Assembly (NCBI GenBank): GCA_033238685.1
Contig: BRZM01000010.1
Location: 3,885,405-3,949,404, forward strand
DNA length: 64,000 nt
Direction: 5' to 3'
Source: Lates japonicus
Lineage: Eukaryota
Positions within the stretch are counted from its first letter, which is position 1. Every line of letters begins with the position of its first letter. The notes under the pieces were generated by a model, which saw only the letters and a program-made list of their open reading frames with translations, was not told where the DNA came from and did no database searches. Shown one piece after another: positions 2,943-34,547 of the stretch. Made by a program: the position numbers and the translations under genes.

Positions 2943-2990
2943 ATGGAGGCGTGTATGGTGAAGCCAGAAGTCAAAAAGAAACCAAAGCCG
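2943..2990 (+). CDS. Giant APOL-domain gene, coding exon 1 (ATG; MEACMVKPEVKKKPKP), donor gtgaga
   Basis: ATG 5 nt after acceptor tctacag. 48 nt, ends phase 0 at a gtgaga donor. Chains in frame through all downstream exons to the APOL domain. Confidence 0.6.
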
Positions 2991-3074
2991 GTGAGAATAT
3001 TTAAAGCTAACGCAGAGAAGACTCAACTGACTGTGTACAGTATATAAACAGCTCCTATAAAATAACACGTTTTT

Positions 3075-3101
3075 CTATTCACAGCCTAAACCTCCTCCAA
3101 A
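3075..3101 (+). CDS. Giant APOL-domain gene exon 2 (PKPPPKPAE)
   Basis: acag|cct...gag|gtacag; 27 nt; phase 0-0. Confidence 0.55.
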
Positions 3102-3226
3102 GCCTGCTGAGGTACAGTAATAAACCCAAACCTTTGATTAAAGTTAATAATGTGTTTTTCTATATATGAACCTCAGGATGTTGTTGTGAGGTTACAGACT
3201 TCTGAAATCTGAAATAATCTTCACAG

Positions 3227-3295
3227 GTTAAAAGAAATGACCCAGAGAAACTGGGGAAACCTACTCCTGTGCTGCCTCAAAGACCTACAGACTCT
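3227..3295 (+). CDS. Giant APOL-domain gene exon 3 (VKRNDPEKLGKPTPVLPQRPTDS)
   Basis: cacag|gtt...tct|gtaagt; 69 nt; phase 0-0. Confidence 0.55.
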
Positions 3296-3444
3296 GTAAG
3301 TCCAGCATGAACAACCTTTACCTCTGTCAAGGAGGTTTTCTTTTCACCTGTGTCTGTTTGTTTATTTGTCAGCAGGATTACAAAAAAAAAAAAAAGTACG
3401 CGTTCTTTTAAGTCTGGGTTGTAGCGGTTTGTTTTTCTGTCCAG

Positions 3445-3501
3445 GAGCTGAGTCACACACAATACAGACTGAAAAAATCAGCAGCAACAACAAACAAAGC
3501 G
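3445..3501 (+). CDS. Giant APOL-domain gene exon 4 (ELSHTQYRLKKSAATTNKA)
   Basis: ccag|gag...gcg|gtattt; 57 nt. Confidence 0.5.
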
Positions 3502-3728
3502 GTATTTACTGCATTTTTAAAATGAAATTTTATTAAATGTCTTGGTTTTACAGAGAGACATGAAAAGTCTTAAGTTTGAGCTTGCATGTGAGAGTATATC
3601 AACATCAATATAATTATTTAAAATGTTTTATTTTGATTTTAATTGATACTCTGCATATGTTTACATGTTTTATACATTATTGTCCAAACAAAAGGAGGTG
3701 TATTATCATATTTATCCATCTGTATCAG

Positions 3729-3809
3729 GGCAACGGAAATTTACCACAAAGAGACACAAAAGAGAAGCTGCCTAAAACTCCTGTGGTTCCACCCAGACCC
3801 ACAGAAAAG
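3729..3809 (+). CDS. Giant APOL-domain gene exon 5 (GNGNLPQRDTKEKLPKTPVVPPRPTEK)
   Basis: atcag|ggc...aag|gtgcag; 81 nt; in frame with six-frame ORF 3576..3836. Confidence 0.55.
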
Positions 3810-4087
3810 GTGCAGTACACCCAAATACTCAGTTAAGTGATTATAGCCAGTGATAGAGTCAGGTTTAAATCCAAGTATTCAAGCTGTTGAATATTGTGGG
3901 AACATGTATGTTTGTTTTATGTGGAGAATGACTTTTTAATTGAAATCAAAGTGAGTCTGGAGTTTAGTGTGAGAGCAGTTTACAGTAAAGAATCACCCTG
4001 TGCTACTCGAGGTTTCATGTTTCTTTCCTGTTTCAAATATCTATTGTTATTGTTCCCTTGTGGCCTTTTCGTGTGCGTTTTGTGCAG

Positions 4088-4147
4088 GAACTGAACGCCT
4101 CGAGCAGATCCAGCCACCGCAGGAGGGCGCAGGCCGAGGACACCGAA
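4088..4147 (+). CDS. Giant APOL-domain gene exon 6 (ELNASSRSSHRRRAQAEDTE)
   Basis: tgtgcag|gaa...gaa|gtacgt; 60 nt. Confidence 0.55.
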
Positions 4148-4240
4148 GTACGTAAAAGACACACACAATGAAAATGCCATGTTCCTCCTGACTTGTTTTA
4201 TATAAAATGCAGAGTCAACGTCGTTCCTCTTCCTCCTCAG

Positions 4241-4306
4241 AGCTCCAGAGAAAATGACAAACCAGAGGATGCTGAAGGTCCCAAAGATGAAGCAGACTTC
4301 AAACAG
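4241..4306 (+). CDS. Giant APOL-domain gene exon 7 (SSRENDKPEDAEGPKDEADFKQ)
   Basis: cctcag|agc...cag|gtacca; 66 nt. Confidence 0.55.
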
Positions 4307-4401
4307 GTACCACAGCTGGAAGTACTGGCTTCCACCTCTGACCAGATTTACGAAGAGAATACATAATGTCTTCCTCTTTATTTACACGTGCTTTGTTGTA
4401 G

Positions 4402-4467
4402 AATAATCCATCGGGCCTGGGTGGAATGTTACGGCAGAGCCAAAAAGAGAAAACACCTACGTTCACT
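4402..4467 (+). CDS. Giant APOL-domain gene exon 8 (NNPSGLGGMLRQSQKEKTPTFT; degenerate basic motif)
   Basis: ttgtag|aat...act|gtaagc; 66 nt. Confidence 0.5.
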
Positions 4468-4955
4468 GTAAGCAACACACCTGCAGCTCTCCTCCACTTT
4501 AGCCTAACATGCCAAACTAGCACTTACTGTGCACTTCTTTACCTGATCTCCTTGCACTGAACTGATTTAGAGCTTACTTCACGGTCTCCCACTGCACTGA
4601 AGCGTCTGCCAAACGAGTTAATGTGAATGTCAAAACTGACAGTGCCTCAGCTAAACAGGTTTCTGGAGGCAAACAGGTGTGTGCGGGTGTGTACACATGT
4701 CAAACCTTAGTGTGTATTCAGACATACAATAGGTGTGTGTCTGCATGTTCATGATTCAGTGTTGATGTAATTTGTTCAGTGAATACACAGAGTCTCATAA
4801 TTAAATAGAAGAAAAAAGACACATTAAATAAACACAAAGATAGAAACATATACACAATGTTTTAGACACATGTATAGAGAAGAGCAGAATTAGATTTTTA
4901 CTTTATGCTTTGAAACATCAGTTGTTTAGTCAGTGTTTCCCTGATTTCTTCTCAG

Positions 4956-5033
4956 AGTTATGTGTTTGACGACGGTGACGAACAGGAAAAGCCTGGTGAT
5001 GTCCCAGCCAAACAGGCTCCTGGCAGCAAACCG
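4956..5033 (+). CDS. Giant APOL-domain gene exon 9 (SYVFDDGDEQEKPGDVPAKQAPGSKP)
   Basis: tctcag|agt...ccg|gtgggt; 78 nt. Confidence 0.5.
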
Positions 5034-5112
5034 GTGGGTGTTTCTTTGTATGGTTGCTGTTGTGTGTGCTGACGTTATCAGCCTGTTTTTGACATGTGAC
5101 TGCGGTTGACAG

Positions 5113-5163
5113 GGCGTTCTGAAGGGAATGATGAAAGGTTTGCAATTCAAGTCGTCACCAAAG
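5113..5163 (+). CDS. Giant APOL-domain gene exon 10 (GVLKGMMKGLQFKSSPK; basic-hydrophobic motif)
   Basis: gacag|ggc...aag|gtacga; 51 nt. Confidence 0.5.
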
Positions 5164-5729
5164 GTACGAGGCACCGTCCGGTTTGGTGTTTTCCACTGGT
5201 GGTGGCTGCAGAGTTTCACACTGTCTCCCTGTCCAGTTTAACTTAGACTACACTTGTTGTGGTGATGGTGGTGGTGGTGGTGTCTGTACTGAAACTGCAT
5301 TGTTCTGATTTTAACAGTATTCATATGTATTATCTTTGGTTTAAAAAGACACATTTTGATAAAAGATGCCCAGACTGCCTGGATGGGTCTGCCGTCACTT
5401 CCTGTTATCTCTCTGTTGTCGACAGACTGATAAAGGCATATGTTGCCTATGAAAAAAAAAAGAAAATGTAGAAAAGATTATCTCACTGTCAGTTTGTAAA
5501 ACCTACAACTTTCACAACTTGACGAAGTGGCACAGTGCAGTGTGGTTCACGTGCTGCATCCTTAGGTAATCATGCCTCAAAATCCTGTCTGGTTTTCACA
5601 AAACTGTGTTTTGTTTGGGTTTTTTTTTTTTTTTTGGTTATTTTTTACATCTTGTCGGTTAGAATTTTTTCAATTTAAAGAATTCACATTTATGACTGTT
5701 GTGCTGAAGATTGTTGACTCTTCTCTCAG

Positions 5730-5834
5730 ACCAGCAGAGATCCGAGTCCAGTTCCCAGCACAGAGGAAGGAGTCTCAGATAAGGAACAACCAGCAGAGAA
5801 AAACAAGCAAGAGAAAAATACAGAACCCAAACAG
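5730..5834 (+). CDS. Giant APOL-domain gene exon 11 (TSRDPSPVPSTEEGVSDKEQPAEKNKQEKNTEPKQ)
   Basis: tctctcag|acc...cag|gtaaga; 105 nt. Two frames are open; phase 0 was chosen from the chain. Confidence 0.45.
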
Positions 5835-6120
5835 GTAAGAGATAAGTAACCACATTAAAATGCTAAACTGTGACTGCTCGTGTGAATACGCCAGTTCTGC
5901 TTCTGCTTTTCCAAACAAACAGAATCATTATTGAATCACTGTTTTAGTGTTTAACTGACATAACAACAAAATGGAATTTCATTCTTTTGAAAATCAGGTT
6001 ACATATTCTGTATGCAAATAGAATTGTTCAAAGTTCTCTATTTTTATAAAAGGAAGACTTAAAAGCAGATTGTTTTTTGGGTGGATCAACCTTAGATTTT
6101 TTTCCAACTTGTCTCTTCAG

Positions 6121-6189
6121 GATATAGGAGGTCTGTTCGCTGGGATGTTCCGGAAAACACCCAAAGAGAGATTGTCTCCTCAACTGACG
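6121..6189 (+). CDS. Giant APOL-domain gene exon 12, B-type (DIGGLFAGMFRKTPKERLSPQLT)
   Basis: cttcag|gat...acg|gtaaca; 69 nt. Confidence 0.6.
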
Positions 6190-6294
6190 GTAACATCAAT
6201 AACTCTTTTTTTTTTTTTTCTTTTTAAAAACTGAATTTCCAGTTTTTATCTTTGATCTTACAACCTATGCACTCATTGTTGTGTTCCCTCCCAG

Positions 6295-6360
6295 GTCAGC
6301 AGAGCAGACAGTGATGCTGAAGATGCTGAGGAAGAGGAGAAAACATCTGAACAGTCCCAC
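6295..6360 (+). CDS. Giant APOL-domain gene exon 13, acidic (VSRADSDAEDAEEEEKTSEQSH)
   Basis: cccag|gtc...cac|gtaagt; 66 nt. Confidence 0.6.
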
Positions 6361-6660
6361 GTAAGTCTTAGTGGCATCAGCAAGCAAGTAAACTTGACAT
6401 AAATATACCATTATACAAACAGAATCCACACAGTAAAAGAACTTTAGAGTTTATTTCAGTGTAAGATTAAAGAGTAAAATAGCTGCCAAGAATTTGCTTT
6501 TTGTGTTTGAAAAGCTCAATTTTTTATGTAAAATTAGTATTGGCTTGAAGGATATGCAACAAATATGTAAAAAGATCCACATATTTAATTCTGTGTTTAA
6601 TTGTTATTTTCAAAGAGTTTGAACTGTACTGTACTTCAAAAACACATTTCTTTTCTACAG

Positions 6661-6729
6661 GAAAAAGGAGGCTTCTTCTCTGGTGTCCTTAAAAAATCCA
6701 GCAAACCAGCAGATGAAACACCTGCACAG
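6661..6729 (+). CDS. Giant APOL-domain gene exon 14, B-type (EKGGFFSGVLKKSSKPADETPAQ)
   Basis: ctacag|gaa...cag|gtgagc; 69 nt. Confidence 0.65.
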
Positions 6730-6754
6730 GTGAGCTGGCAAAAATGATTTTCTG

Positions 6755-6895
6755 CAGCCAGAAGGCAGTTAGCTTACCTCAGCATAGAGACTGAAAACAA
6801 GGAGAAACAGCTAACCTGGCTATAGCTTTGGATAGAGCAGGGGATTTTGATATATTTTACTGTCATCTGGTAAAGCTTTTGTCATTTGTTTTCCA
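6755..6895. repeat. Dispersed fish interspersed repeat, copy A (in an intron of the giant gene)
   Basis: gcagttagcttacctcagcatagagactgaaaacaaggagaaacagctaacctggctatagctttggatagagcagg is about 75% identical to copy B at 46390-46600. Confidence 0.5.
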
Positions 6896-6925
6896 CTTTT
6901 CCAACATATTACCTTGATACTTCAG

Positions 6926-6991
6926 GAGAATCTGAGTGCCTGCAGCAAGCTGTCGGCCAGCAGTGACAGTCTGTCTGAGAACAGCAAAAAG
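6926..6991 (+). CDS. Giant APOL-domain gene exon 15, A-type (ENLSACSKLSASSDSLSENSKK)
   Basis: cttcag|gag...aag|gtgagc; 66 nt. Confidence 0.65.
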
Positions 6992-7175
6992 GTGAGCAGC
7001 TTTCAGTCACAGTATCTGCTATGAGAGCAGCAGAGATAACCTTATCTTTAATCACAGTGTACACACAGACTTAAAGTAGATTTTCCTGCAACAAAAGTAC
7101 GTCATTGACCTGTCTTTGATCCGAATAAAAATCCCATAACTGACCATGTGTGCACCATTTTTCTGTCTGTGTTAG

Positions 7176-7247
7176 GAAAAAGGAGGAATATTCAGTGGGA
7201 TGTTCAGGAAGTCTCCAAAACCAACAGATGCTCCTCAGACTGACGAG
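7176..7247 (+). CDS. Giant APOL-domain gene exon 16, B-type (EKGGIFSGMFRKSPKPTDAPQTDE)
   Basis: gttag|gaa...gag|gtgacg; 72 nt. Confidence 0.65.
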
Positions 7248-7410
7248 GTGACGTAGATGGAAAACAGCTGTAACATGCCAGTCAATGTGCTATGACACAA
7301 GATGGCAGATCTATTGTGCAACTCCTCAAACGAAGCCAACAAGGTCATATCATTAGTTTAATCCTGCAGCCTGATAATCACATTGAACTCGTTCACATTT
7401 TGTGTTTCAG

Positions 7411-7473
7411 GACCAACAGTCTCTGCATGATGATCTGTCAGGCAGTAATGATAATCTGTCTGAAAATTCAAAG
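7411..7473 (+). CDS. Giant APOL-domain gene exon 17, A-type (DQQSLHDDLSGSNDNLSENSK)
   Basis: tgtttcag|gac...aag|gtgagc; 63 nt. Confidence 0.65.
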
Positions 7474-7586
7474 GTGAGCTCAGACGTATTCAGCTATGAA
7501 ATGACAGGATTATGATGCAGTGTTACCATTATTGCCGTTACGTAACAGCAGCTGATGGTGTGAATTAATTGTTCTGACATCACCAG

Positions 7587-7649
7587 GAAAAGGGAGGATT
7601 TTTCGGCGTGATTCTCAGAAAATCTCCAAAGATTCCTGAAGAGGGGCAG
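7587..7649 (+). CDS. Giant APOL-domain gene exon 18, B-type (EKGGFFGVILRKSPKIPEEGQ)
   Basis: caccag|gaa...cag|gtaatg; 63 nt. Confidence 0.65.
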
Positions 7650-8145
7650 GTAATGTGTGAGCAAGTGAAATTTTAACATAGCTAAGATTCTCCTCCACAG
7701 ATTTTAGAAACACTAATAGTCACCAGAAATGTGTGATAGTGGTAGTCTGCTCAAACTTCCTTGTTAACTGGAATAAACTATGGTTCAACATATTAAAGAG
7801 CAGATAAACGCATTTAAGTGGAGTTCAGAGTGTGAATATGTTGGAGAGTAAATTAAAGGATTAGAATGAACAAAGTCAAGATTACAATGACCAAGTGATA
7901 AATGGTGAAACTAAAAGTCAATAGGTTTTGCTGCCAGAAAAGCCAGTTTGTCTGTTAAAGTGTCTTTTTGAACAATAAACTGAAACCCTGTCTGGTCACC
8001 TAATGTTTGCTTTTCTGTTTAAAAAGGTGAATTCTGAATCCTAAAAGAAACTTGGACAGATGAGGCATTTTGACACTTTGCTTTTCTGACATTTTACCAA
8101 GAGCTTAAAATAGGACACATCAATATTGGTCACCTCAGACACTTT

Positions 8146-8170
8146 TATTATTATTATTATTATTATTATT
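8146..8170. repeat. (TTA)n microsatellite
   Basis: direct. Confidence 0.9.
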
Positions 8171-8480
8171 AGTTGCTGTTACACACAGGACTTTTAATCT
8201 CAGATGCTCTTTGGTCCAAAATGTATAAAATTCTGTTAATTTGTTGACAAAATTAGTAATTTTTATGATAGTATTGCATCTTGACACTTTTATTATCTTT
8301 GTATCATGTTTGTTCGTATTATGTTCCTAAATTACCAATAAGCTGCTTGTAAATGTAGGTTCTGCAGTGATGAGGTTTTTGCCTCTACCTGTTTGTTTCT
8401 GTAGGTGGTTTCATGTCTGCATGTAAGCGGCATGAGTGTTCATGTTCAGACAGGTCGAGTCACATTTTTGTTGTGTTCAG

Positions 8481-8540
8481 GTCTCAGAGTCGTTGCACGG
8501 TGAATTCTCTGCCAGCACTGACTGCCTAATGGAGAACAAG
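8481..8540 (+). CDS. Giant APOL-domain gene exon 19, A-type (VSESLHGEFSASTDCLMENK)
   Basis: tgttcag|gtc...aag|gtttgt; 60 nt. Confidence 0.6.
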
Positions 8541-8720
8541 GTTTGTTTTCATGACAGATTTGACAGTCCCCCCCCCCGCACACCCACTGAAACTGCATGA
8601 GTCACCATGATGAGCATGGAAACATGAGTTAATGTGCCTGTAGCTCTGTAGGAGGAAGATAAGGTTCCTAAGACCTGTTTTAATTTAGGAAATTTAATAT
8701 GTTTTCTCTTCTCCCTGTAG

Positions 8721-8777
8721 GAGAAAGGTGGTTTGTTCAGTGGACTCCTCAGAAAGACGCCCAAAACAACTGGAGAG
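8721..8777 (+). CDS. Giant APOL-domain gene exon 20, B-type (EKGGLFSGLLRKTPKTTGE)
   Basis: ccctgtag|gag...gag|gtacag; 57 nt. Confidence 0.65.
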
Positions 8778-9992
8778 GTACAGCTTCTCAAACAGTGTAG
8801 CGTAGTTTCCATGGAGACACTCTGAGCAGACCCATAAACACTGTCTAATCTTTAAAATGAAAAAAACTGTTGCTTTATTGTGCTCAAGACACTGGGTGTG
8901 CTCCATGAACCCAACTGGCAAAATGCTCTGTGTTTGTGCTGGATGGGTGTGGTTTTCCCTCCACATGCCATGAGACCCAGCAGACTTTAAAGGTGCTATA
9001 TGTATGTTTTTGCTCTCGCTGTATAACCAACATTATCATTAACAGCTGTTTACTTACCAGTCTAAAGGAAATGTTACAAGTTCAGCATCAAACTTCATTC
9101 CTTTACTTGCTAAGAGCTGTGTCCATCAGTGGAAAGTAACAGCAATATTAACTCTTGTTTTGCCTCAATTTCTATCACTTATTTTAGCATGCTAACCAGT
9201 TAGCTCCTGCCCATCTTGTCTCATAATACCACTTGTGAGTCACTGTAGCGTCCAGTCTGCCTTTAGTCCAACATGACGAGATGAAGTTGCGCTATCATGT
9301 CATCTATCACATGATCATAGATATCATATATGCAAAACACTACAGTCATCTTTTTTTTCCAAATACTGTTTACAAAATATCATTGTCCTTAGTGGTGCTG
9401 GATTACCAACCAGGCAAAGCAGGCAACTGCCCAGGGGCCCCAGAAGCTCCGAGCTGAGCATACATGGTCTTTTGTTGTGGAGATCATGGCAGCACATGAG
9501 GCAGTTCAAGTGCCTGTTGTTTATACTTGTTCCAAAAGTTCAAAATAGATTTTTAAAAATGAAAAACCACATGTTACCAACAGGATTGTCCCGACTAATG
9601 AAATCCTTTTACACACAGTTTGTCATGACTGAATCCTAATTAAAATGATCCTGTTGTGTCTGACAAGCTATAAAAAGATGCAATCAAAGATTACCGCAGC
9701 ATCTTTATTACCTGCTGCTGTTTTATTATCAGCTCATAGAGACTCAGAATCATACCTACCATGTTACGTGCCAACTGGTTTCCCTGTCCTTCCCATGAGT
9801 ATGACTAAATGGAGCACAGCCAGTGTGACACATGTTCCTCATATGTCCACCAATGTTTTCAAATGCTGCACCCAGGAAGAGGAGAAAATAAATCATGACA
9901 GACAAATATTTAAGCACATTTCCTTTTCATTTATCCCCTTCTACCATTTCCTGTTGGATTGTTTTTCCTGACAGTTTTGATTGTTGTTTCAG

Positions 9993-10064
9993 GAGAATCT
10001 GTCAGCACAGAAAAAAGATCTTTCAGCCAGTAATGACAGTCTGTCTGAGGCCGCCAACACCAAG
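9993..10064 (+). CDS. Giant APOL-domain gene exon 21, A-type (ENLSAQKKDLSASNDSLSEAANTK)
   Basis: tgtttcag|gag...aag|gtcagt; 72 nt; frame confirmed against ORF 9981..10247. Confidence 0.65.
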
Positions 10065-10425
10065 GTCAGTTTGGTCATAAGAATGCTCTCTAGAGTCTCA
10101 TTTTTAAAAGATCAACATCAATCATTATCAAATCAAATACATGAATATTCCCCGGGAGCTAACAATGAAACAATGCAGCTCAAAGAGTCAATCCTTTGGG
10201 GAATCATGTTTATTGCTTATAAAAGTTGGACTTATGACTGGAGTTGAAATGCGTAGTCACAGAAATTTATTCTGCAACTACTATTAAAGTAATAGTTTAA
10301 GTTCTATTTCAAGCAAAAAGGCCAAAAATTTCTCTGTTATCTGTCTCTGTTTCTGTTGTATTTTGTTTGGAAGAAGTAATGTGTATATATAGAATTTTGA
10401 AAAACCTGTGTACCTGACATTTCAG

Positions 10426-10497
10426 GAGAAGGGAGGTGCGTTCAGTGGAATGTTCAAGAAGTCGTCCAAACTTGCAGATGGTCCTCCCACTGAGGAG
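10426..10497 (+). CDS. Giant APOL-domain gene exon 22, B-type (EKGGAFSGMFKKSSKLADGPPTEE)
   Basis: tttcag|gag...gag|gtaaga; 72 nt. Confidence 0.65.
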
Positions 10498-10564
10498 GTA
10501 AGAAGTGTCTCCTCTGTTTTCTGGTTCTGTCCAGTCACTCAGTAGTGTTGTTGAAAGCTGCATG

Positions 10565-10700
10565 TCGGCAAAACATCAGGGTAGACTTGTGACTAGAAGG
10601 TTGCCGGTTTGAATCCCAGGGCCAACATAAAAAACATCATGTAAATAAATGCAAGGAACCCTGAGGAAAGTTCCAGGCTAGAATCCAACCAGAGACAGTG
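10565..10700. mobile_element. tRNA-derived SINE-like fragment (ggtagacttgtgactagaaggttgccggtttgaatcccagggcc)
   Basis: B-box-like GGTT..G(A/T)TCC motif in the context typical of fish tRNA-derived SINEs; lies within an intron. Confidence 0.35.
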
Positions 10701-11005
10701 TAGTTATGTGGTATGCATCTCAACTGCTTGTCTGGTGAATGCCTGAAAAACAGGATTTGCTATGTGAATAAATATCTCTGCTCTTTTCCCTATGAAATGT
10801 TGTTTTATAAAAGCTGTTAGATGTTAGTGGATGTGGCTCATATTTAAAACTTGGCCAAACTTTTATTATAAAACACTGTGGGAAATGCTGGGAGTAAATA
10901 CAGTTCATATCCTGAGTATTTAACAGTGAGATGCCCTGAAGCTGAGGTGAATGTAAAAAGACCTCTAATGTGAAACAGGTTCTAATTAACTTTTTCTTTT
11001 TTCAG

Positions 11006-11071
11006 GAAAAACAGATGCAAGACGATGAGCGGCCAGGCAGCAGTGAAGGTCTGTCTGAAAACAACACCAAG
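11006..11071 (+). CDS. Giant APOL-domain gene exon 23, A-type (EKQMQDDERPGSSEGLSENNTK)
   Basis: ttttcag|gaa...aag|gtgaga; 66 nt. Confidence 0.65.
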
Positions 11072-11148
11072 GTGAGATTTTTTAATAGCATCATTTGAAA
11101 ACAATCCTGTTTAACTTCTATTTCTTTAAGAGACAGTGCTCATGTTTC

Positions 11149-11174
11149 GTGTGTGTCTGTGTGTGTGTGTGTGT
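11149..11174. repeat. (TG)13 directly abutting the 3' splice site of exon 24 of the giant gene
   Basis: gtgtgtgtgtgtgtgtgtgtgtgtttcag|gaaaaagg. Confidence 0.9.
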
Positions 11175-11179
11175 TTCAG

Positions 11180-11248
11180 GAAAAAGGACTATTTAGTGGA
11201 ATATTCAAAAAGTCGCACAAACCGGCAGAAGCTGCTCAACCTGAGGAG
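11180..11248 (+). CDS. Giant APOL-domain gene exon 24, B-type (EKGLFSGIFKKSHKPAEAAQPEE); acceptor directly preceded by (TG)13
   Basis: gtgtgtgtgtttcag|gaa...gag|gtaact; 69 nt. Confidence 0.65.
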
Positions 11249-11826
11249 GTAACTGTATGAATCATTTTTCAAAATACTGACCTTTATCCAGCTCTTAACC
11301 TGCTTTGCTTTATTGTGTTTCCATGTTTCCATTTCCAAACATTTATGATACCTTTTTATATTGTAAAGCCTCATGACCTCCATTAAGAGCACTGTGTTTT
11401 TTCACCAGAGGCTGTTTGAAATTTGACTCATTTTCAATGTAATTTTGTGGGAAATTCAGAATAACAATGTACAAGTGATCAGTTGTTGGTGCAGATTAAC
11501 TCTGTCTTTTAAAAGCATTCTTAACATTGTACATTTTTTTTTAACTATTTCCCTATTTTCCTCACAAAACATTGCACTGAATGATTGCCTGTTACTGTGT
11601 TTATACTGATGCAGATCTGTACACAGATATAGATTTGGTGTAGATTCAAGTTTCAAAACATTTTCTACAATTAAAGAAACAAATATCTGTTGAAACTATG
11701 ACACATTACAATTATTTTTATTAAGTTTTATTAGGAAAAAAATGTCTGAATTTATCTGCAATCTTTTAAAACTTTTCAGAGGATAAACTGTTAATGCAGC
11801 TTCACTTACAACTTTGTCTTTTACAG

Positions 11827-11886
11827 AATGAGTCTTCTGAGAATGAGCTCTCAGCCAGTAATGAAAATTTGGCAGAGAACAAACAG
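11827..11886 (+). CDS. Giant APOL-domain gene exon 25, A-type (NESSENELSASNENLAENKQ)
   Basis: ttacag|aat...cag|gtcagt; 60 nt. Confidence 0.6.
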
Positions 11887-12004
11887 GTCAGTGAGTTTAA
11901 ATCAGTGCTGTTTAGTGGCTTTTCAGTGAACCAGTTTCATTTATAAATATTTCAGCACTGGTCCCATCTCAGCCCTAAAACCTTTTCTTGTGTCTTTCCA
12001 TCAG

Positions 12005-12109
12005 GAGAAAGGTGCGGGGCTGTTCAGTGGACTCCTCAAAAAGACTCCGAAAGCGTCAGGAGAAGAAGGTGGTGAATCTGCCTGTGGTTCAAACTCTTTC
12101 ATTTCTCAG
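12005..12109 (+). CDS. Giant APOL-domain gene exon 26, extended B-type (EKGAGLFSGLLKKTPKASGEEGGESACGSNSFISQ); donor choice uncertain
   Basis: catcag|gag... A nearer gtggtg at 12069 would break the frame (64 nt). The strong donor cag|gtgggc at 12110 gives 105 nt with an open frame. The exon could also be skipped without frame loss. Confidence 0.4.
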
Positions 12110-12986
12110 GTGGGCCGACACTGACGACCTGTCTGGAAATTTCTTCACAAGGTGGCGGTGTAATGCAACAAAAACTTTGTGATAAATGTCTCGGAGGAAC
12201 GTTCACTAACACCACATTATTTTTTAGGAGAAATGTTTCCAACCTTATGTTTAAAACAGCAGAAAGCCAGCAGAGAACAGCTGAAAAGTACTGTGATTGA
12301 ACAAGGCGTTATTGTTCTGCCGGAGAATGAATACTGATACTAACATTTGTTCTTTTCTGGTTTGAATTCAGGGCAGGAAAACGGTGAAAATCAGTTATCT
12401 GGCAGCTAGAATCAGATGACACCGTTGTGAAGATTGCCTATCTACAAAGGCACTTTTTCTTCTCTTTGTTTTTTTGGTCAATGGCTACTTTTGTCCTTCA
12501 TTAACATAGACGACAGATCAGTCAAATCAGATTTTTATGAGATAGTACTGTGGGTTTTACATTGTAAAGTTCTTATACGTGCATTGTACTCAGGTTTGTG
12601 ATAATTCTTTGACAAGACACAAGTACTTTCCAAAGTTAAAATTTGATATAAATAAAATTTAAAAAACAATGTTAAACCAAAGTATGCAAAAGGCAGGTTT
12701 AAGATAGTAATATACATCTTGGAATAAGCCTTCACTGAAGTAATATCTAATATATTCTTGACGGTTGTGGCAGGGACTCTGTGTTGTTGGGTTAAATGGC
12801 ATTTTTGTTGAAGGGCTGTGTTAAATTTATATTCCTTAACATTAAGCTTCAGCATTTAGATTTCACTTTTTGGTCATTTCTCTCTTTGCTGTTATTTTCT
12901 GTCTCTTTTTGGTTGTTTTGAGTCTTTTCTCGGGTCCCCTGACCTCCTCATTAATCCATCCATGCATCTGTGTTTTTTCTTGTCAG

Positions 12987-13055
12987 GAGAAAGGACTGTT
13001 CAGTGGCCTTAAGAAGAAAACACCCAAAGCGTCTGGAGATGATGCAGCTGCAGAG
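12987..13055 (+). CDS. Giant APOL-domain gene exon 27, B-type (EKGLFSGLKKKTPKASGDDAAAE)
   Basis: tgtcag|gag...gag|gtgagt; 69 nt; frame anchored by ORF 12870..13082. Confidence 0.65.
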
Positions 13056-13155
13056 GTGAGTGCTCGGCTAGTTTTATGCTAACACTGTTAGCATCTTAGT
13101 CTATGGTAACTGTTGCACATATGAACTTAATGTACATTCTTTATTCTTTTTTCAG

Positions 13156-13212
13156 GACAAAGACGAGCTGTTTGCAAGTGACGAGAGTCTGTCTGAGAAC
13201 ACTAACACCAAG
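13156..13212 (+). CDS. Giant APOL-domain gene exon 28, A-type (DKDELFASDESLSENTNTK)
   Basis: tttcag|gac...aag|gtactg; 57 nt. Confidence 0.65.
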
Positions 13213-13472
13213 GTACTGAGTTGAGAAATGTCAGCACTATAAACTGTGTGCAACACAACTACTCCTGTGCATTTGAAAACTGAACAGTATTTCAAATATG
13301 TTAAGTTTGTGGTGAATTTTTTTTCTCATTCATCCTTTACAAACTGTACAAATATAAAATGTATCATTTCTAATTAGTACATTGCATTTATGGGGATTCA
13401 AAAATATATATTATGTCTCTGGAAACCAAACGTTGTCTCTCCTTCATTCAGTTCCTGCATTTCTGTTTTTAG

Positions 13473-13538
13473 GAGAAAAGTATTTTCAGCGGGATGTTTA
13501 AGAAGACTCATAAACCAGCAGAGGGGACGACAGATGAG
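13473..13538 (+). CDS. Giant APOL-domain gene exon 29, B-type (EKSIFSGMFKKTHKPAEGTTDE)
   Basis: ttttag|gag...gag|gtgcag; 66 nt. Confidence 0.65.
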
Positions 13539-13639
13539 GTGCAGTAATAACATTTACATAAAGTTGACATTGCATTACACACATTTGACTATTTTGTATT
13601 CGTCTTCATTTTTTATGTTTTATTTTCATGTGTTTTCAG

Positions 13640-13711
13640 GAATCAAACGCAGGCAATTCTAAGAAATTATCTGCCAGTTGTGAGAATCTGTTGGAGGCAA
13701 ACGCATCAAAG
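13640..13711 (+). CDS. Giant APOL-domain gene exon 30, A-type (ESNAGNSKKLSASCENLLEANASK)
   Basis: ttttcag|gaa...aag|gtacaa; 72 nt. Confidence 0.65.
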
Positions 13712-13808
13712 GTACAAATGTTGTCTGATGATCACAACTTTAGTCTGTTTCTTTCTCTTCTGTTATTGATTGTTGATTATTAATGTGTAAATGTTTCATC
13801 TGTTTCAG

Positions 13809-13880
13809 GAGAAGACAGGAGGATTTGCAGGGATCTTCAAAAAGTCTCCCAAACCAGCTCCACGCTCTGTTGTTACTAAG
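13809..13880 (+). CDS. Giant APOL-domain gene exon 31, B-type (EKTGGFAGIFKKSPKPAPRSVVTK)
   Basis: tgtttcag|gag...aag|gtgact; 72 nt. Confidence 0.65.
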
Positions 13881-14039
13881 GTGACTAAATAAACTGATTT
13901 GGGTTTTTCGATGTGTAAAGTTATCAGCTGTTTAGATGTCTGTGAAACCTCTTATTTACATTTTTAAGAGAATCATATTATGGCAAATTCTCCATAAATA
14001 ACCCTCAACAAACCTGACTGCTGACAAACTGTTCTCCAG

Positions 14040-14102
14040 GATCCACTCATTAACTCAGAGGAACTGTCCGCCAGCTGGGACAGTCTCGCAGACGCTGCTG
14101 AG
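14040..14102 (+). CDS. Giant APOL-domain gene exon 32, A-type (DPLINSEELSASWDSLADAAE)
   Basis: tctccag|gat...gag|gtgagc; 63 nt. Confidence 0.6.
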
Positions 14103-14608
14103 GTGAGCGCAAGTCTGTGGATACACTTAACAACATGTTAATACTGTACGTTTATACTGTAGGCAACAGTACCAATAAATGTTAATCAGAATATTTTGTT
14201 GCCTACAAAACATTTGAGTAACACAATGGTAAGTATTTAAACAAAAGGCTACATTTGACTACATGTCTGAGGAAAGGGAATCTCAGAAGACTAGAAGTAA
14301 CTGTATGGAGCCTTCCTTTCTCCAGATTGTCTGCCAGCGAACATTTAGAATAGATTTTCAGCATCAGCATTTGCTGTTTTATACAGAGGCCCATTTCTGT
14401 CACTGTGATGGGAAGTTGTCATAATAAGAAACTCTCTCAAGATAGTGATTCAGTAAGTCACTTACAGGATCTTTGTTTTCATCACATTGGCAGAAATGCA
14501 CTTCCAGTTTTTAGATTTTTAACCCTCACTTTACTTTGTACTTTGTGGCCTGGTTATGAGAAGGTTCCCAGTCAGTGATAAATAACTTTTGATTGCATTT
14601 TTTTAAAG

Positions 14609-14680
14609 GAGGATCTGTCAGCACACGGTGAATTGTCTGCCAGTACTGAAAACCTTTGTGAAGCTACAAGCACCGCAAAG
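14609..14680 (+). CDS. Giant APOL-domain gene exon 33, A-type (EDLSAHGELSASTENLCEATSTAK)
   Basis: tttaaag|gag...aag|gtgaga; 72 nt. Confidence 0.6.
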
Positions 14681-14771
14681 GTGAGACTTGCAGAGTGTGT
14701 TAACCTGTTTGATTGACTGAATGAACACCTTTTTGTGACTTATAAATACATCATGTTTTATATTTTTACAG

Positions 14772-14831
14772 GAGAAAAAAGTAGGGTTTGGTGGGATGTT
14801 CAGGAGGACGCCCAAAACTGTGGAACACCAG
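14772..14831 (+). CDS. Giant APOL-domain gene exon 34, B-type (EKKVGFGGMFRRTPKTVEHQ)
   Basis: tttacag|gag...cag|gtgcga; 60 nt. Confidence 0.65.
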
Positions 14832-15168: not shown

Positions 15169-15240
15169 GAAAGCGAGGACATGGAGGCACCAGAGGGAGG
15201 TGGGCTGAGACGCAGGAGGACAATCAAGAAGCAAAGACGA
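15169..15240 (+). CDS. Giant APOL-domain gene exon 35 (ESEDMEAPEGGGLRRRRTIKKQRR; basic, NLS-like)
   Basis: gttgcag|gaa...cga|gtgagt; 72 nt. Confidence 0.6.
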
Positions 15241-15472
15241 GTGAGTTGTTGGTCACAGTGGAAAAAAAACATCCAGAGACCTGACAGAAAGTAGCAGCAG
15301 CAAGAATAACATATATTTCAACAGCTGTGTTTCATAACATGAATTTCTACTTCCAATATCAGTGGTCAAGATGAGGGTTTAGCTTTTATCAACAAAAGTT
15401 AGACACATGTTTTCTCTTGTTTCTCCAGAGTTCTTCTCTGACTAATATAAACTTCCTGTTCCTGTTTCTCAG

Positions 15473-15535
15473 GTTGTGTCATTCCGAGTGAAGAAAACTC
15501 TTCCCAAACTACCCAAACTTAATTTATCCTCACAG
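15473..15535 (+). CDS. Giant APOL-domain gene exon 36 (VVSFRVKKTLPKLPKLNLSSQ)
   Basis: tttctcag|gtt...cag|gtgtgt; 63 nt. Confidence 0.6.
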
Positions 15536-15856: not shown

Positions 15857-15919
15857 ACTTCTGATAAGATGCCTGTCATAGAGGAGACTGTGGAGCTGCA
15901 GGAGCTGAACCCAGCACAG
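15857..15919 (+). CDS. Giant APOL-domain gene exon 37 (TSDKMPVIEETVELQELNPAQ)
   Basis: gcacag|act...cag|gttagc; 63 nt. Confidence 0.6.
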
Positions 15920-16551
15920 GTTAGCATTAGGATATTATAAAGTAGACACCCAGAAAAAAACATTTTTCTGGGACTCACAAATGTTGAGCCAAGCCCATCT
16001 ATTCAATATCATATCCCTTATAAACATACAGCATGACATTTCATGGATTGTTTATCTAGTTGGTTTTGCAGCTGTGAAATGAAAAATGAATGTTAGGGTT
16101 CAGTTGACAAAATAAAATCTGTTACATGAACGAATTAAGTAACTCTAAATAGAACTGGAACAAGTGAGAGACTCAGAAACACTTGAAGAAAGTGAGGACA
16201 AAGAATAATAAAATGACAGTAAGTGCATGCATTTAGATATAAATATATATTTGCATGCACATGAAATCATAATTGCAGCATATCTTTACCTGATATGTGT
16301 GATAATGATTACAGTGTCATTTAATTGTGCATTTTGTTTGTGAAACACAGTGTTAGTTGTCACTCTATGTCTGCAGCCTGTGAAGATCAGCTAGCATTCA
16401 GCGAGTTAGCTGTTTAGCTGTTAGCTGTTTACCATAAAGTCATGTTAGTGTGTGTTAAAGTGGGAGTATGTCATCTGTACAGAACCTTACAGATGTTACA
16501 GCTGAACTTTATTGTGTTAAAGGTTGTGTTATTATTGTGTCTGTTTTCCAG

Positions 16552-16626
16552 GAGGGCACAGTGGAGGTCCAGCCTGTAGAGATGGCAGCTTACCCAACTG
16601 AAGATAACCCTCTTGAATATGAGCAG
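16552..16626 (+). CDS. Giant APOL-domain gene exon 38 (EGTVEVQPVEMAAYPTEDNPLEYEQ); donor followed by (TG)14
   Basis: ttttccag|gag...cag|gtgtgt; 75 nt; frame anchored by ORF 16468..16680. Confidence 0.65.
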
Positions 16627-16640
16627 GTGTGTTTCAGTAC

Positions 16641-16643
<3 letters not shown>

Positions 16644-16672
<29 letters not shown>
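16644..16672. repeat. (TG)14 starting 18 nt downstream of the exon 38 donor
   Basis: direct. Confidence 0.9.
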
Positions 16673-16675
<3 letters not shown>

Positions 16676-16734
16676 ACTAAATATATGCAAGGAAATAAGT
16701 TGACTCTTCACAAACAAATGTCTTTTGTTTTCAG

Positions 16735-16774
16735 GAAACTGATGAACTGATGGAGTGGTGGAACTCTGTAAAAG
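16735..16774 (+). CDS. Giant APOL-domain gene exon 39 (ETDELMEWWNSVK, ends phase 1)
   Basis: ttttcag|gaa...aaag|gttagt; 40 nt. Confidence 0.6.
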
Positions 16775-16893
16775 GTTAGTGTGATATTGATGCACATCCA
16801 CCTGTTTGATGTAATACAAAAGACATAAAAGACATTAAAAACAAAACGCTATTATTATTATTTAGAAGTATTATTTCTGCTGCTGGCTTCCAG

Positions 16894-16945
16894 GTTGGAC
16901 TGAGTGGAACGAAACATCCAATTTCCAGGAGGAGGATGAGGAAAC
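16894..16945 (+). CDS. Giant APOL-domain gene exon 40 (GWTEWNETSNFQEEDEET, phase 1 to 2)
   Basis: ttccag|gttgg...gaaac|gtaagc; 52 nt. Restores the frame exactly into the APOL-domain exon. Confidence 0.6.
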
Positions 16946-17261
16946 GTAAGCACAGTTTCTTTGATTCAAATTTTCCCCAGAAAATATTATTTTGCGTTTC
17001 AGGGAATTTATTTTAGGATATTCTCATTATGTAATATCTGTTGATGATTGTTTTCATTATTGATTAATCATTTGGTCGACAAATCATCAGACAAATTCTG
17101 CCACTGAAGAAGCTGGAACCTGAGAATGTAAAAAGTTTCCTCTAAATGAGAAAACAATGATCAAAATATTTGTTATTTTTCTGTCAATTTACTAATCAAT
17201 TAATCAACTTATCATTTCAGTTCTAGTATAGGAAATTGCCATTAGGCCCTTACATCTTTCG

Positions 17262-17280
17262 TCTCTCTCTCTCTCTCTCC
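17262..17280. repeat. (TC)9 forming the polypyrimidine tract of the APOL-core exon acceptor
   Basis: gtctctctctctctctctctccag|ggctatgg. Confidence 0.9.
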
Positions 17281-17282
17281 AG

Positions 17283-17697
17283 GGCTATGGAGCAGGCAGC
17301 TGATCGTGTCTACATGGCAGCTCGCCTCTTCGTGCATCTCTTCAACCAGCGCGGGGCTTCCTTACAACACCGCATCCTGGAGCTTTTGACCCTGGCCGAC
17401 GCTGCGGATCAATTCCACAAGAAAACGGTGACGGCTGCTGTGGGTGGAGGGGTGGCCAGTGTTGCAGGCAGCGTGGCTACAATCACAGGGCTCATTCTGG
17501 CACCTTTCACTTTCGGTGCCTCTATTATTGTCACGGCGGTGGGGATCGGTGTGGCGACGGCAGGCAGCATCACCTCAGCAACGGCTAATATCACAGACAC
17601 AGTTCACTCCAACATGGACAGGAAGAAAGTGGAGAAGATGATCCAGGGCTACCAGGATGAGATCAAAGACATCAGGGAGTGTTTGGAGTTCATGCAG
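17283..17697 (+). CDS. Giant APOL-domain gene exon 41: APOL core (MEQAADRVYMAARLFVHLFNQRG...Gly/Ala-rich transmembrane hairpin ...ILAPFTFGASIIVTAVGIGVATAG...DIRECLEFMQ)
   Basis: (TC)n-ag|ggctatgg...atgcag|gtgagg; 415 nt. Matches six-frame ORF 17236..17718. Homologous to the human APOL1 hairpin GLAPFTEGGSLVLLEPGMELGITAALTGI and the following KLKEVREFL region. Confidence 0.85.
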
Positions 17698-18378
17698 GTG
17701 AGGACATGTTTGACTTGAGTTTGTGCTTTAGAAATTGAGAATAATCTCACACAGGCTTTGCAGCTGTGTCACAAATTTCTCCACTGATGCCCGCATTCAG
17801 GTCTGGGTCGAGTAGTAATGCAAAAATAGATAAACGAGTTACCCTAAAAAAGTAGGTGTTGTGTAGATTAGGGCAGAATCTACCAGTTATTTTATTTCAC
17901 AGATAATTTGGCAATTATTTTTACAATTAGTCCATTTCATTTTTAGTCTAAAATGTCTAATACTCAAAAATTACCATCACAAGATGAACACCTAAGTCTA
18001 GGCCTTATCATCCCCACTGGTTTTCATCAATGTTTTTATTGGTATACTGGTATTAAATTGCATTCTATGTGGTATTAAAAAAGCCTTAAATTTAACTTGG
18101 TGAGCCCTGCAAAAATTGTTACTGTAATATAGCAGAATCAGGGGTTTCTTTCAGGTATTTCCATCCTAAAATACTTCTGTATGGTTGGTGTTATTTTTTT
18201 CCACCTCAACGATGGTTCACTATAACAAATATGAAAGAATAAAATCAGAATTTTAGGGTATACATTTTGATTTTTAAATTACACTTCATGTATGGTGAGA
18301 AAACCTTTGAAAAGAATGATTATAATGTCTTTCTGAGACGGTATTTAACATCCTTTCCTGTCTCTGTGCCTCCTGTAG

Positions 18379-20112
18379 GAAGGTATGGACACCCTGCAGG
18401 AGTGGGACTTTGAGAAATACTCTCAGAGTGCTGCCAAAAAGGCCCTGAACCACAACATTAAACATGTGGTGAAGGAGGGTGGCCGTGCTGGGAAAGCCCT
18501 GATGATCAACACTGACAAACTCATCAGCACCGTGCAGGTTCTGGGTGCTGCAGGCGGTGCCGCCAAAGCCGCCCAGGCCATCAGCGTCACCACAGGGGTC
18601 ATGTCGGCCCTCTTCCTGGCTCTGGATGTCTTCTTCCTCGCCAAAGATTCCCACGAGCTCCACAAAGGCGCCAAAACCAAATTCGCCACCAAGATCAGGG
18701 AGGTGTGTAAAGACCTTCAAGACGGTCTCCTGGAGCTGAACAAGGTGAAGACGCAGCTGCAGAAAACCATGGACGGCATCGAGGTGGAGGAGTATGAGGA
18801 GATCGAGGAGGTGGAGGTGGAGGTCGAAGATGACTTGGAGTCTGATCCTAAGAAGCTGGCCGAGCTGGAGCAGGAGCTAGACCTCCTGGAGGAGAAACTG
18901 GACAAAAAGATTGAGGAAGAGCAGAAGAAGAATAAAGAGATGGAGGGAGAAAATCAGAAAAGTAAGAAAGAGACAAAGGAGGAGAAGAGCATGAAGGAGA
19001 AAGGAGATGCAGAGAAACAGAAGGAGGACGAGGAGAAAATGGGAGAAAATGATGCAAAGAAAGAGGGAAAGAAGGAGAGTAAGAAGGAAAAAGACAAAGG
19101 AGAAAGCAAATTTGAGTCTGCATTAGAGAAACTACCTGAGGAGGAAAGAGAGCAGAATAAGGAGAAAACTGGCAAAGCAGCTAAAGAGGAAGTTTTAAAA
19201 GAACAATCTCAGAAAGGAAGCAAAAAAGACAAAGAAACTGAGAACCGCATTACTGCTGGGAAAGAAAAACACGAGAGCAAGCGAGACAAGGCAAAGACAG
19301 ATGAAAAACAGAAGAAGGTGGATGCAGAAGAACAGGAGGAACCTGCGAGTAAATCGGGTGACACAAAACAAGGAAGGCCGAGGTCAGAACGGGTCAAAAC
19401 CGAGAGTCAAAGAAGCAAGAGCAGCAGAGAGGATGAAAGAGGAGTAAAGCATGAGTGGAAATCAGTGACTAAAGAGAAAGAGGTGGAAAGTGGGAGTGTG
19501 AGGAGGCACAGCAGCAGGAGTGAGCATGACAGAGAAAGAGGGGGTAAACATGAAATGAGAGAAACTGATAAGGAGAGACTCCCTAGAAAAGAAAGTGACA
19601 GGACAGAGAGCCGGAGGAGGACAGAGGAGGAGAGAGGAGTAAAAGACTGGAGAGCTGAGATGGCAAAAAGTAGAGAGCAGAGGAAAGAAAGTAAAGAGGG
19701 AAGAGAATCCAAGAGAGAGACAGAGAGAGGGACGAAACAAGACAGTCACAGAAAAAGCGACGTGAGGAGAGAGTCACATCGAAGTCATGAGATGGGGACG
19801 AGGAGGGAGAGAGAGTGGGGGAGCAGCAGGGAGGAGTCAGACTCACAGAGGAGTCACCACAGGAGAGGAACGGCCCCGCATGACGAGAAACGGGGGAGCA
19901 GGCTTGAGAGTGCGAGGAGGCAGTTTGAAAAAGCAGGGGGTGAGGAGGCAGATGAGGAGGAGGAGAGGAGAAGGAGGAGGGAGGATGGAGGGGGTAGTCG
20001 GAGGAGGGACAAGGATAGGAGAGGAAGCGACCGAGACAGAGAGCACGAACACAGCCACAGAGGATCTCGATCTGGATCCAGCGCTCTGCTGGAAGACGGA
20101 CTGTACATTTAG
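18379..20112 (+). CDS. Giant APOL-domain gene terminal coding exon: APOL C-terminal (SRA-interacting-like) region, ...MSALFLALDVFFLAKDSHELHKGAKTKFATKIRE..., then an acidic EEVEVEVEDD segment, a K/E-rich coiled-coil-like segment and an R/E/S/D-rich (RS/RD/RE-like) tail; stop TAG 20110-20112
   Basis: tcctgtag|gaaggtATG...; in frame with ORF 18385..20112 (575 aa). Matches the APOL1 C-terminus [35 protein letters not shown]. Confidence 0.85.
   Translation, partial: EGMDTLQEWDFEKYSQSAAKKALNHNIKHVVKEGGRAGKALMINTDKLISTVQVLGAAGGAAKAAQAISVTTGVMSALFLALDVFFLAKDSHELHKGAKTKFATKIREVCKDLQDGLLELNKVKTQLQKTMDGIEVEEYEEIEEVEVEVEDDLESDPKKLAELEQELDLLEEKLDKKIEEEQKKNKEMEGENQKSKKETKEEKSMKEKGDAEKQKEDEEKMGENDAKKEGKKESKKEKDKGESKFESALEKLPEEEREQNKEKTGKAAKEEVLKEQSQKGSKKDKETENRITAGKEKHESKRDKAKTDEKQKKVDAEEQEEPASKSGDTKQGRPRSERVKTESQRSKSSREDERGVKHEWKSVTKEKEVESGSVRRHSSRSEHDRERGGKHEMRETDKERLPRKESDRTESRRRTEEERGVKDWRAEMAKSREQRKESKEGRESKRETERGTKQDSHRKSDVRRESHRSHEMGTRREREWGSSREESDSQRSHHRRGTAPHDEKRGSRLESARRQFEKAGGEEADEEEERRRRREDGGGSRRRDKDRRGSDRDREHEHSHRGSRSGSSALLEDGLYI

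Positions 20113-34088: not shown

Positions 34089-34547
<459 letters not shown>

Follow-up and report, generated by a model that had tools for sequence, protein, structure and literature searches.

Apolipoprotein L (APOL) proteins of mammals are about 250-400 amino acids (aa) long, and the intracellular members APOL2, 3 and 6 lack a signal peptide. The biology of the family has been worked out almost wholly on these short mammalian proteins, while teleosts carry the full ApoL domain in proteins of 1000-1700 aa. The subject here is one such teleost gene, found in a 64,000-nucleotide stretch of the Lates japonicus genome (assembly GCA_033238685.1, contig BRZM01000010.1, positions 3,885,405 to 3,949,404 of the forward strand; the whole stretch is called the window below, and positions are counted from its first letter). 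The evidence supports a single gene that joins an array of alternating exon pairs, an ApoL domain, and a low-complexity tail. Compared through Pfam and other family features, mammalian APOL1-6 have, like the window protein, a complete ApoL domain with the LAPFT.G.S hairpin and the C-terminal H..GAK and coiled-coil part, but they have no exon-pair array, no Trp-rich "WW" helix of the form found in the window, and no charged tail of 440 aa.

Within fish, zebrafish apol1 has been described from a 2.6-kb locus (chr2:37,674,122-37,676,731 in Zv9) as a short protein lacking a secretory domain (NP_001025309.1), and its knock-down or CRISPR disruption, which produces oedema and podocyte defects, has been used to model APOL1 nephropathy (PMC4492502). 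The related APOLD1 has been presented as an ancient and conserved member of the family that can be followed back to amniotes, in a paper that does not mention the fish genes considered here (PMC8557400). The closest database relatives of the window gene are found elsewhere, in teleost models named "apold1a" (for example stickleback XP_040027894, Larimichthys LOC104932880, and Hypomesus XP_046882734). These share with the window protein the start MEACM..KKKPKPPKPPPKPAE, the exon-pair array, a linker with RRRRTIKK and VVSF, the WW helix, the charged tail, and a C-terminal DGL[YND]I tip, as well as the exon order and the downstream neighbour of the window gene; they differ in the number of repeat exons and the length of the tail, so that their sizes range from 1000 to 1740 aa. 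In many species, the identity is 45-68% over 83-99% of the query, with E = 0. As judged from these similarities, the window gene is the orthologue of teleost apold1a, formerly "si:rp71-1g18.13"; one stickleback accession was renamed from the latter to the former between versions. Other orthologues bear uninformative automatic names such as titin homolog, myb-like protein X, and futsch, and several are called "uncharacterized protein apold1a".

An earlier note on this DNA had stated that no such domain combination was known in characterised APOL proteins. That statement stands for the literature, in which no paper was found under apold1a or rp71-1g18.13 and in which searches for work on APOLD1 in zebrafish and on teleost ApoL proteins turned up nothing on the gene. 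It does not stand for the databases, where the combination appears under apold1a, under si:rp71-1g18.13, and in a paralogue called "apolipoprotein L1". The architecture is in fact already present in RefSeq, UniProt, and Ensembl for more than 100 teleost species, with no functional study found, so that the locus is the orthologue of an already annotated gene and its value lies in what it says about the family. Taken as a whole, the observations are best explained by a single-gene apold1a orthologue encoding a giant ApoL protein without a signal peptide, which would act at membranes as set out below, and we hold this explanation to be highly probable.

The gene model on which this explanation depends was obtained twice. 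The earlier note had traced 42 coding exons by hand from an ATG at 2943 to a TAG at 20112, with a predicted product of about 1590 aa. Independent rebuilding of the reading frame gave the same 42 exons between the same ends, with 4761 nucleotides (nt) encoding 1586 aa, GT-AG borders at all introns, and no internal stop codons; four short exons (3227-3295, 3445-3501, 3729-3809, and 15473-15535) were located by means of the Larimichthys orthologue (P0007). The two ApoL exons, which the note had placed at 17283-17697 and 18379-20112, proved exact in their coordinates, both with AG acceptors and exon 41 with a GT donor. The product consists of an N-terminal extension of 871 aa, an ApoL region of 271 aa, and a tail of 444 aa, close to the extension of about 850 aa and the tail of about 450 aa estimated before. 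The parts are as follows.

2943..2990, plus strand: exon 1, with the start codon and MEACMVKPEVKKKPKP.
3085-3111, 3227-3295, 3445-3501, 3729-3809, 4088-4147, 4241-4306, plus strand: exons 2-7, with GT-AG borders, phase 0.
4402..14831, plus strand: exons 8-34, the exon-pair array, recognized from direct repeats D1-D5, the exon table, and the classification of exon types.
15169-15240, 15473-15535, 15857-15919, 16552-16626, plus strand: exons 35-38, a conserved linker collinear 1:1 with stickleback.
16735-16774 (40 nt) and 16894-16945 (52 nt), plus strand: exons 39 and 40, both frame-shifting, encoding the Trp-rich helix ETDELMEWWNSVKGWTEWNETSNFQEEDEE.
17283..17697, plus strand: exon 41, first half of the ApoL domain, with an AG acceptor, a GT donor, and a Pfam ApoL match.
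18379..18777, plus strand: first part of exon 42, second half of the ApoL domain, with an AG acceptor and a Pfam match reaching profile position 297/298.
18778..20112, plus strand: remainder of exon 42, the 444-aa tail, recognized by composition.
18778-19371, plus strand: within the tail, the acidic EEVEVEVEDD stretch and a K/E-rich part, recognized by composition.
19372-20109, plus strand: within the tail, an R/E/S/D/K-rich part ending in the tip LLEDGLYI, followed by the TAG at 20110-20112.

At the 5' end, the ATG at 2943 is the first downstream of an in-frame stop, and an AG at 2936-2937 suggests that a non-coding exon may sit upstream of exon 1. The N-terminus MEACM.KP.VKKKPKPPKPPPKPAE is kept in Larimichthys, Anableps, and stickleback. 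Exons 2-7 (3085..4306), which encode a Pro/Lys-rich N-terminal region without repeats, match the Larimichthys orthologue in tblastn and map 1:1 onto the stickleback locus (L001). At the other end of the gene, a frame-1 open reading frame (ORF) at 17236-17718 contains ...AMEQAADRVY...GLILAPFTFGASIIVTAVGIGVATAG...ECLEFMQ|GT, and a second ORF at 18385-20112 contains LALDVFFLAKDSHELHKGAK, EEVEVEVEDD, the K/E-rich part, and the R/E/S/D-rich part, its TAG ending at 20112. When eight orthologues were compared with the long introns, nothing exon-like emerged beyond these 42 exons. Two microsatellites lie within introns: (TG)14.5 at 16644-16672 in intron 38, right after the donor region of exon 38, and (TTA)9 at 8145-8171 in intron 18. 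The G+C content of the window is about 33-47% in 2-kb windows, and the stretch at 18-20 kb is strongly skewed toward G and A.

The arrangement of exon lengths bears directly on whether the array and the ApoL domain belong together. Every one of exons 1-38 has a length divisible by 3 and is in phase 0; for 38 exons of random length the chance of such an outcome is (1/3)^38 = 7e-19, which argues that these exons are constrained as coding sequence. The same regularity has a second consequence, for if all of them are in phase 0, the unbroken chaining of phases becomes automatic and any subset could be skipped. The chaining reported earlier is therefore present throughout the gene but is informative only at exons 39-41, where it is non-trivial. 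These exons measure 40, 52, and 415 nt, and nothing short of their combined length (507 nt, or 169 x 3) brings the frame back, so that the first ApoL exon is tied to the two exons encoding ETDELMEWWNSVKGWTEWNETSNFQEEDEE.

Evidence from other teleosts extends the connection to the rest of the gene. PF05461 is present in every one of more than 110 teleost cluster representatives, 1000-1740 aa in length, whose alignments cover 60-99% of a query that took in the complete N-terminus. In the synteny comparison that had been proposed with other teleosts, exons 1-8 and 35-42 are collinear with stickleback, 1:1 and in order, within a gene that has the same downstream neighbour. A Logan contig from another teleost (SRR10006208_539, here L002; 4743 nt) contains one uninterrupted ORF of 1118 aa that carries type-A and type-B repeats, RRRTIKKKRRVVSF, the WW motif, the ApoL domain, and a charged tail. 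As this ORF runs continuously over what would be more than 20 genomic exons, the contig must derive from spliced RNA. Two further repeat exons, together with an apparent retained intron, lie in its first 660 nt. Over 531 aa aligned to exons 32-42, the encoded protein shows 76% identity, and the alignment passes the predicted junctions without gaps; in comparison with the window DNA the match blocks end at exon borders, the block at 17288-17698 (exon 41) abutting that at 18377-18988 (exon 42). The earlier claim of a single-gene fusion thus holds on the coupling of exons 39-41, the teleost proteins, the stickleback collinearity, and the RNA-derived contig. The whole layout is conserved from eels to percomorphs, and it also occurs in a paralogue located directly upstream in stickleback, on the same strand.

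These data can be set against the proposal that two separate genes, one for a repeat protein and one a conventional APOL gene, were merged in error both by annotation pipelines and by hand tracing. Such an error is conceivable where symmetric phase-0 exons chain trivially, and entries covering the N-terminal part by itself do exist in databases, among them one of 866 aa without any Pfam domain (P0113) and 12 of 25 weaker matches in which ApoL is missing. These entries, however, are short or fragmentary models, neither a stop codon nor a terminal exon was found ahead of exon 41, the three exons that lead into the ApoL domain depend on each other for frame, and both parts stand within one ORF in the RNA-derived contig, so that the two-gene proposal is close to refuted. 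Model errors do occur in this gene family. An "apold1a" model of 807 aa from Chanos chanos (P0108), which has both ApoL and DOMON Pfam hits and is probably a read-through merger with the downstream neighbour, provides an example.

A different question is which product the gene makes. The locus might also, or mainly, produce a short ApoL-only protein from a promoter in intron 40, with the Met in AMEQAADRV as its start (ATG at 17287-17289) and the long fusion as a minor form. The description of zebrafish apol1, a paralogue, from a 2.6-kb locus would fit such a product, as would short paralogue models in the databases (296 aa, "Apolipoprotein L, 1"; 333 aa, "apolipoprotein L6-like") and the sequence GCTATGG around the ATG in exon 41. 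Against these points stand the split codon with which exon 41 opens behind a strong polypyrimidine acceptor, the replacement of the Met by Val in the cDNA contig (MAVEQVADRV), the conservation even in the paralogue of the WW-motif exons just 5' of exon 41, and the read-through seen in all long orthologue models and in the cDNA contig; the short models, moreover, are those of the paralogue or Ensembl fragments. Such a short product is accordingly a minority view to which we give some credence, and the long single-gene product is retained as the basis for what follows.

That exons 41 and 42 encode a complete APOL-type domain is clear from the profile comparison that the earlier note had proposed. 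The two ApoL exons by themselves match Pfam ApoL (PF05461) with E 1e-33, so that one of the two refuting outcomes named in the note, a missing ApoL match, did not arise, and the full model matches with E 2.3e-33 and 116.4 bits (cut-off 25.9) at residues 877-1130, covering positions 43-297/298 of the profile hidden Markov model (HMM). A Pfam scan of the full protein found no RRM and no family besides ApoL. Exon 41 is 92-95% identical to its counterparts in stickleback and Larimichthys. In Kyte-Doolittle profiles only two hydrophobic segments occur in the whole protein, both within the ApoL region: the Gly/Ala-rich hairpin at residues ~919-972 (nt 17425-17586; maximum 2.13) and a second segment at residues 1071-1101 (nt 18562-18654; maximum 1.97), which is followed by HELHKGAKTKFA and a coiled-coil-like end. 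The N-terminus is basic and Pro-rich, has no hydrophobic segment, and is not a signal peptide.

A pore-forming property would follow from membership in the family. The only sequence matches in the PDB, Vibrio MakE (6w08) and "Nhe lytic component L1" (6tao), have E 0.003 and lie over the hairpin (17425-17586), where TIFGVVLAPFTLGGSLIL aligns to toxin TITGLILAPFTFGASIIV. The likeness of ApoL to these ClyA-family alpha-pore-forming toxin components is local and borderline, and is known from sequence only; it is a weak lead that would fit a membrane-inserting hairpin.

The N-terminal extension presents a quite different type of organization. The direct-repeat families at 6-15 kb are short coding-like units bordered by AG and GT, and their three-frame translation resolves them into two alternating peptide types. 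The exons of the array are each 42-105 nt long, divisible by 3, and in phase 0; 14 type-A exons ("EKGGLFSGMFKKSPKP") alternate with 10 type-B exons ("DLSASNDSLSE"), and a few acidic spacer exons are added. The type-A consensus, EKGG[LIF]FSG[ML]F[KR]K[ST]PKP, is basic and aromatic ("GGLFSGMFKKSPKP") with a mean net charge of +1.5, and the type-B consensus, [DE]LSAS[NST][DE][SN]LSE, is acidic and Ser-rich with a mean net charge of -2.6. The spacing S-x-x-S is clearly enriched in type B (9 in 210 residues, vs 2 in 320 for type A). The array exons match stickleback exons many-to-many, all inside one stickleback gene. RefSeq lists at least six isoforms of that gene. In four of these, a single cassette exon (18, 19, 22, or 24 aa) makes the whole difference from X1, and another departs from X1 at one residue; the cassette-exon isoforms fit the symmetric phase-0 design of the array. 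In an AlphaFold 2 (AF2) model, run on an orthologue (P0100) with an alignment of 30 sequences, the repeats have a predicted local distance difference test (pLDDT) score of 30-40 and no secondary structure.

How far the array has spread was addressed by a phmmer search with the N-terminal-only orthologue (P0113) against 1.84 billion representatives. Only 65 matches were obtained at E <= 1e-3, and all 20 that could be named are teleost ApoL genes. The named taxa are Elopomorpha (Anguilla, Conger, Albula, and Aldrovandia), Clupeiformes, a catfish, and percomorphs. Among 25 newly seen matches, 13 have ApoL and the other 12 are short models. BCAS1 is a name that automatic annotation at one time attached to the paralogue, and a widespread family would be expected to exceed 65 matches in this repeat-region search. 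At the sensitivity of phmmer as used, the array is confined to two teleost ApoL gene lineages and dates from about the teleost ancestor.

Between the array and the ApoL domain lie two conserved elements. The linker of exons 35-38, whose order is the same in the cDNA contig, contains a basic block GGLRRRRTIKKQRR|VVSFRVKKTLP that spans the exon 35/36 junction (written out, RRRRTIKKQRR|VVSFRVKK), with an acidic stretch after it. The pattern "[RK][RK]?[VI][VI]SF[RQK][VIL]K" is found in 88 of 114 orthologue representatives, but neither the eel models nor those paralogue sequences that were checked contain it. The RVxF-like pattern at this junction possibly represents a PP1-docking site, as it fits a loose form of that pattern, and is to be taken as a lead only. 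Directly before the ApoL domain comes the Trp-rich helix of exons 39 and 40, in which conservation of the WW-motif residues W278, W279, and W285 reaches 90% or more over an alignment of orthologues and paralogues. This helix has a pLDDT of about 80 in the AF2 orthologue model; the ApoL helices in the same model are of low confidence.

The tail that follows the ApoL domain is about 55% charged (K+R 0.28, D+E 0.29), and the tails of orthologues have medians of 397 aa in length and 53% in charged residues. The C-terminal tip [DE]DGL[YND]I (20095-20109 in the window) is shared by most orthologues; in salmonid-like sequences the end is CQFYI. The earlier note had likened the R/E/S/D-rich part of the tail to those of SR proteins and U1-70K. 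As a description of composition this stands, but the likeness is one of composition only: there is no RRM, and dipeptide counts over the last 246 aa are 6 for RS and 8 for SR, beside 12 for RE and 8 for ER. The gene was considered as a candidate SR/U1-70K-type RS-domain protein and rejected on the missing RRM and the mixed charge of the tail.

From these features a mechanism can be proposed. The protein would stay in the cytosol, and its ApoL domain would associate with, or insert into, intracellular membranes by way of the Gly/Ala-rich hairpin, in the manner of the intracellular mammalian APOL proteins. The flanks would be intrinsically disordered and multivalent, making many weak, charge-based contacts, with the number of motifs set by the skipping of cassette exons and the charge probably depending on phosphorylation in the Ser-rich units. 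In this way, the flanks could adjust the site or the strength of ApoL-domain contacts with membranes or partner proteins.

Several points weigh against this combined explanation. The mechanism is drawn wholly from homology and composition. AF2 modelled the orthologue poorly, at a mean pLDDT of 47, and a Foldseek comparison with the PDB gave nothing at E <= 0.001, returning only long helical proteins at E ~0.8 or higher. Two more specific roles for the repeats were tried as well. The type-A motif as an amphipathic helix was dropped at a helical hydrophobic moment of only 0.2-0.4, and type-B exons as dense CK2 sites were dropped at a density of S/T-x-x-D/E sites only slightly above that of type A (6 in 210 residues, vs 6 in 320 for type A), which is too few to call. 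As to the fusion itself, the transcript evidence comes from a teleost species other than Lates japonicus, and the exact window protein is absent from the protein collection searched. The short ApoL-only paralogue models of 296 and 333 aa exist, and an internal start may also be used.

The second lineage that carries the array is the one that the databases name "apolipoprotein L1" after zebrafish apol1 (P0117 and its relatives, for example Epinephelus XP_078029153 and Alosa XP_048098459). Its members have N-terminal GGVFSGMFKKSPKP / DLSASSELSGS repeats and MEWWNTV, and in other fish the models so named reach 900-1050 aa with an N-terminal repeat array. The paralogue P0117 has a full ApoL match at HMM 43-297, the scores of window protein and paralogue being 116-124 bits. 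It is only ~37% identical to the window protein overall and differs from it in its N-terminal start, in a long acidic spacer before ApoL, in a short tail ending ENREYV, and in having no VVSF motif. In stickleback, a second ApoL-domain gene (a 905-aa model, cut by the end of the locus, at L001:1-6447) lies just upstream on the same strand and is 49% identical over the equivalent of exon 41; it is probably a paralogue of the P0117 type. The eel and moray matches bear consecutive locus tags. Together with the adjacency in stickleback, these tags suggest that the two ApoL lineages with repeats form an ancient tandem pair. No trace of a second ApoL gene was found in the window's 2.9 kb upstream of the ATG.

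The comparison has consequences for zebrafish apol1, whose disease models treated this paralogue as a short protein, although long models in other fish carry the same array. The zebrafish apol1 model may be incomplete, or may represent one of two isoforms. Carried further, the comparison leads to a broader conjecture: that both APOL-type genes of teleosts, zebrafish apol1 included, normally and ancestrally make the long form, and that the array, with its alternating basic/aromatic and acidic/Ser-rich units, is a multivalent module tunable by splicing and phosphorylation, with a possible PP1-docking site, that gates or targets a pore-forming ApoL domain. We know of no APOL protein that is regulated by such a tunable array, and the conjecture as a whole is speculative and rather unlikely to hold in every part. 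The flanks of the teleost proteins are built from skippable mini-exons and have persisted since the teleost ancestor.

Another confounding issue is the name. "apold1a", given by several RefSeq annotations and by UniProt, implies an endothelial role like that of APOLD1, and the window gene could be a true orthologue of mammalian APOLD1 (VERGE), with its role in endothelial cells, to which lineage-specific parts have been added. The hairpin of human APOLD1 is indeed 34% identical over 119 aa (E 6e-20). Its Pfam match, however, covers only HMM 63-141 (59-141 in emu) at 50-60 bits, compared with 43-297 and 116 bits for the window protein. In BLASTP against human APOLD1, the HxxGAK and coiled-coil part at the C-terminal end of the window's ApoL domain is left unaligned. 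APOLD1 proteins, at 246-297 aa, are too short to hold the repeats or the tail of the 1586-aa window protein, and the best 120 relatives of human APOLD1 include no fish protein. The neighbours of the window gene are a small DOMON-like gene and an hnRNPC-like gene; those of human APOLD1 are presumably CDKN1B, DDX47, and GPRC5A. Orthology to APOLD1 is on this evidence improbable. A complete APOL-type domain (43-297) implies that "apold1a" is not to be taken as a statement of functional orthology, and the domain structure gives no support to an endothelial role.

Downstream of the ApoL gene, five tblastx blocks at 27841-30784 on the plus strand match a gene of 242 aa that lies 3' of apold1a in stickleback and has a faint Pfam DOMON hit there; the downstream neighbour is thus conserved. 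Pfam gave no match for the one exon of this window gene that was tested. About 14 kb downstream of the ApoL gene, on the opposite strand, an hnRNPC-like gene is marked by an exon at 34086-34538 (minus strand) with RRM_1 at E 1.5e-13; in the PDB it is most similar to hnRNP C1/C2 (E 3e-43) and RALY (E 4e-38). Toward the end of the window, at 61290-61993 on the plus strand, two overlapping Ser/Pro-rich ORFs of 138 and 115 aa, which start MEDFATTAHTDPKNTQRF and have no Pfam match, may represent the initial exon of a further gene.

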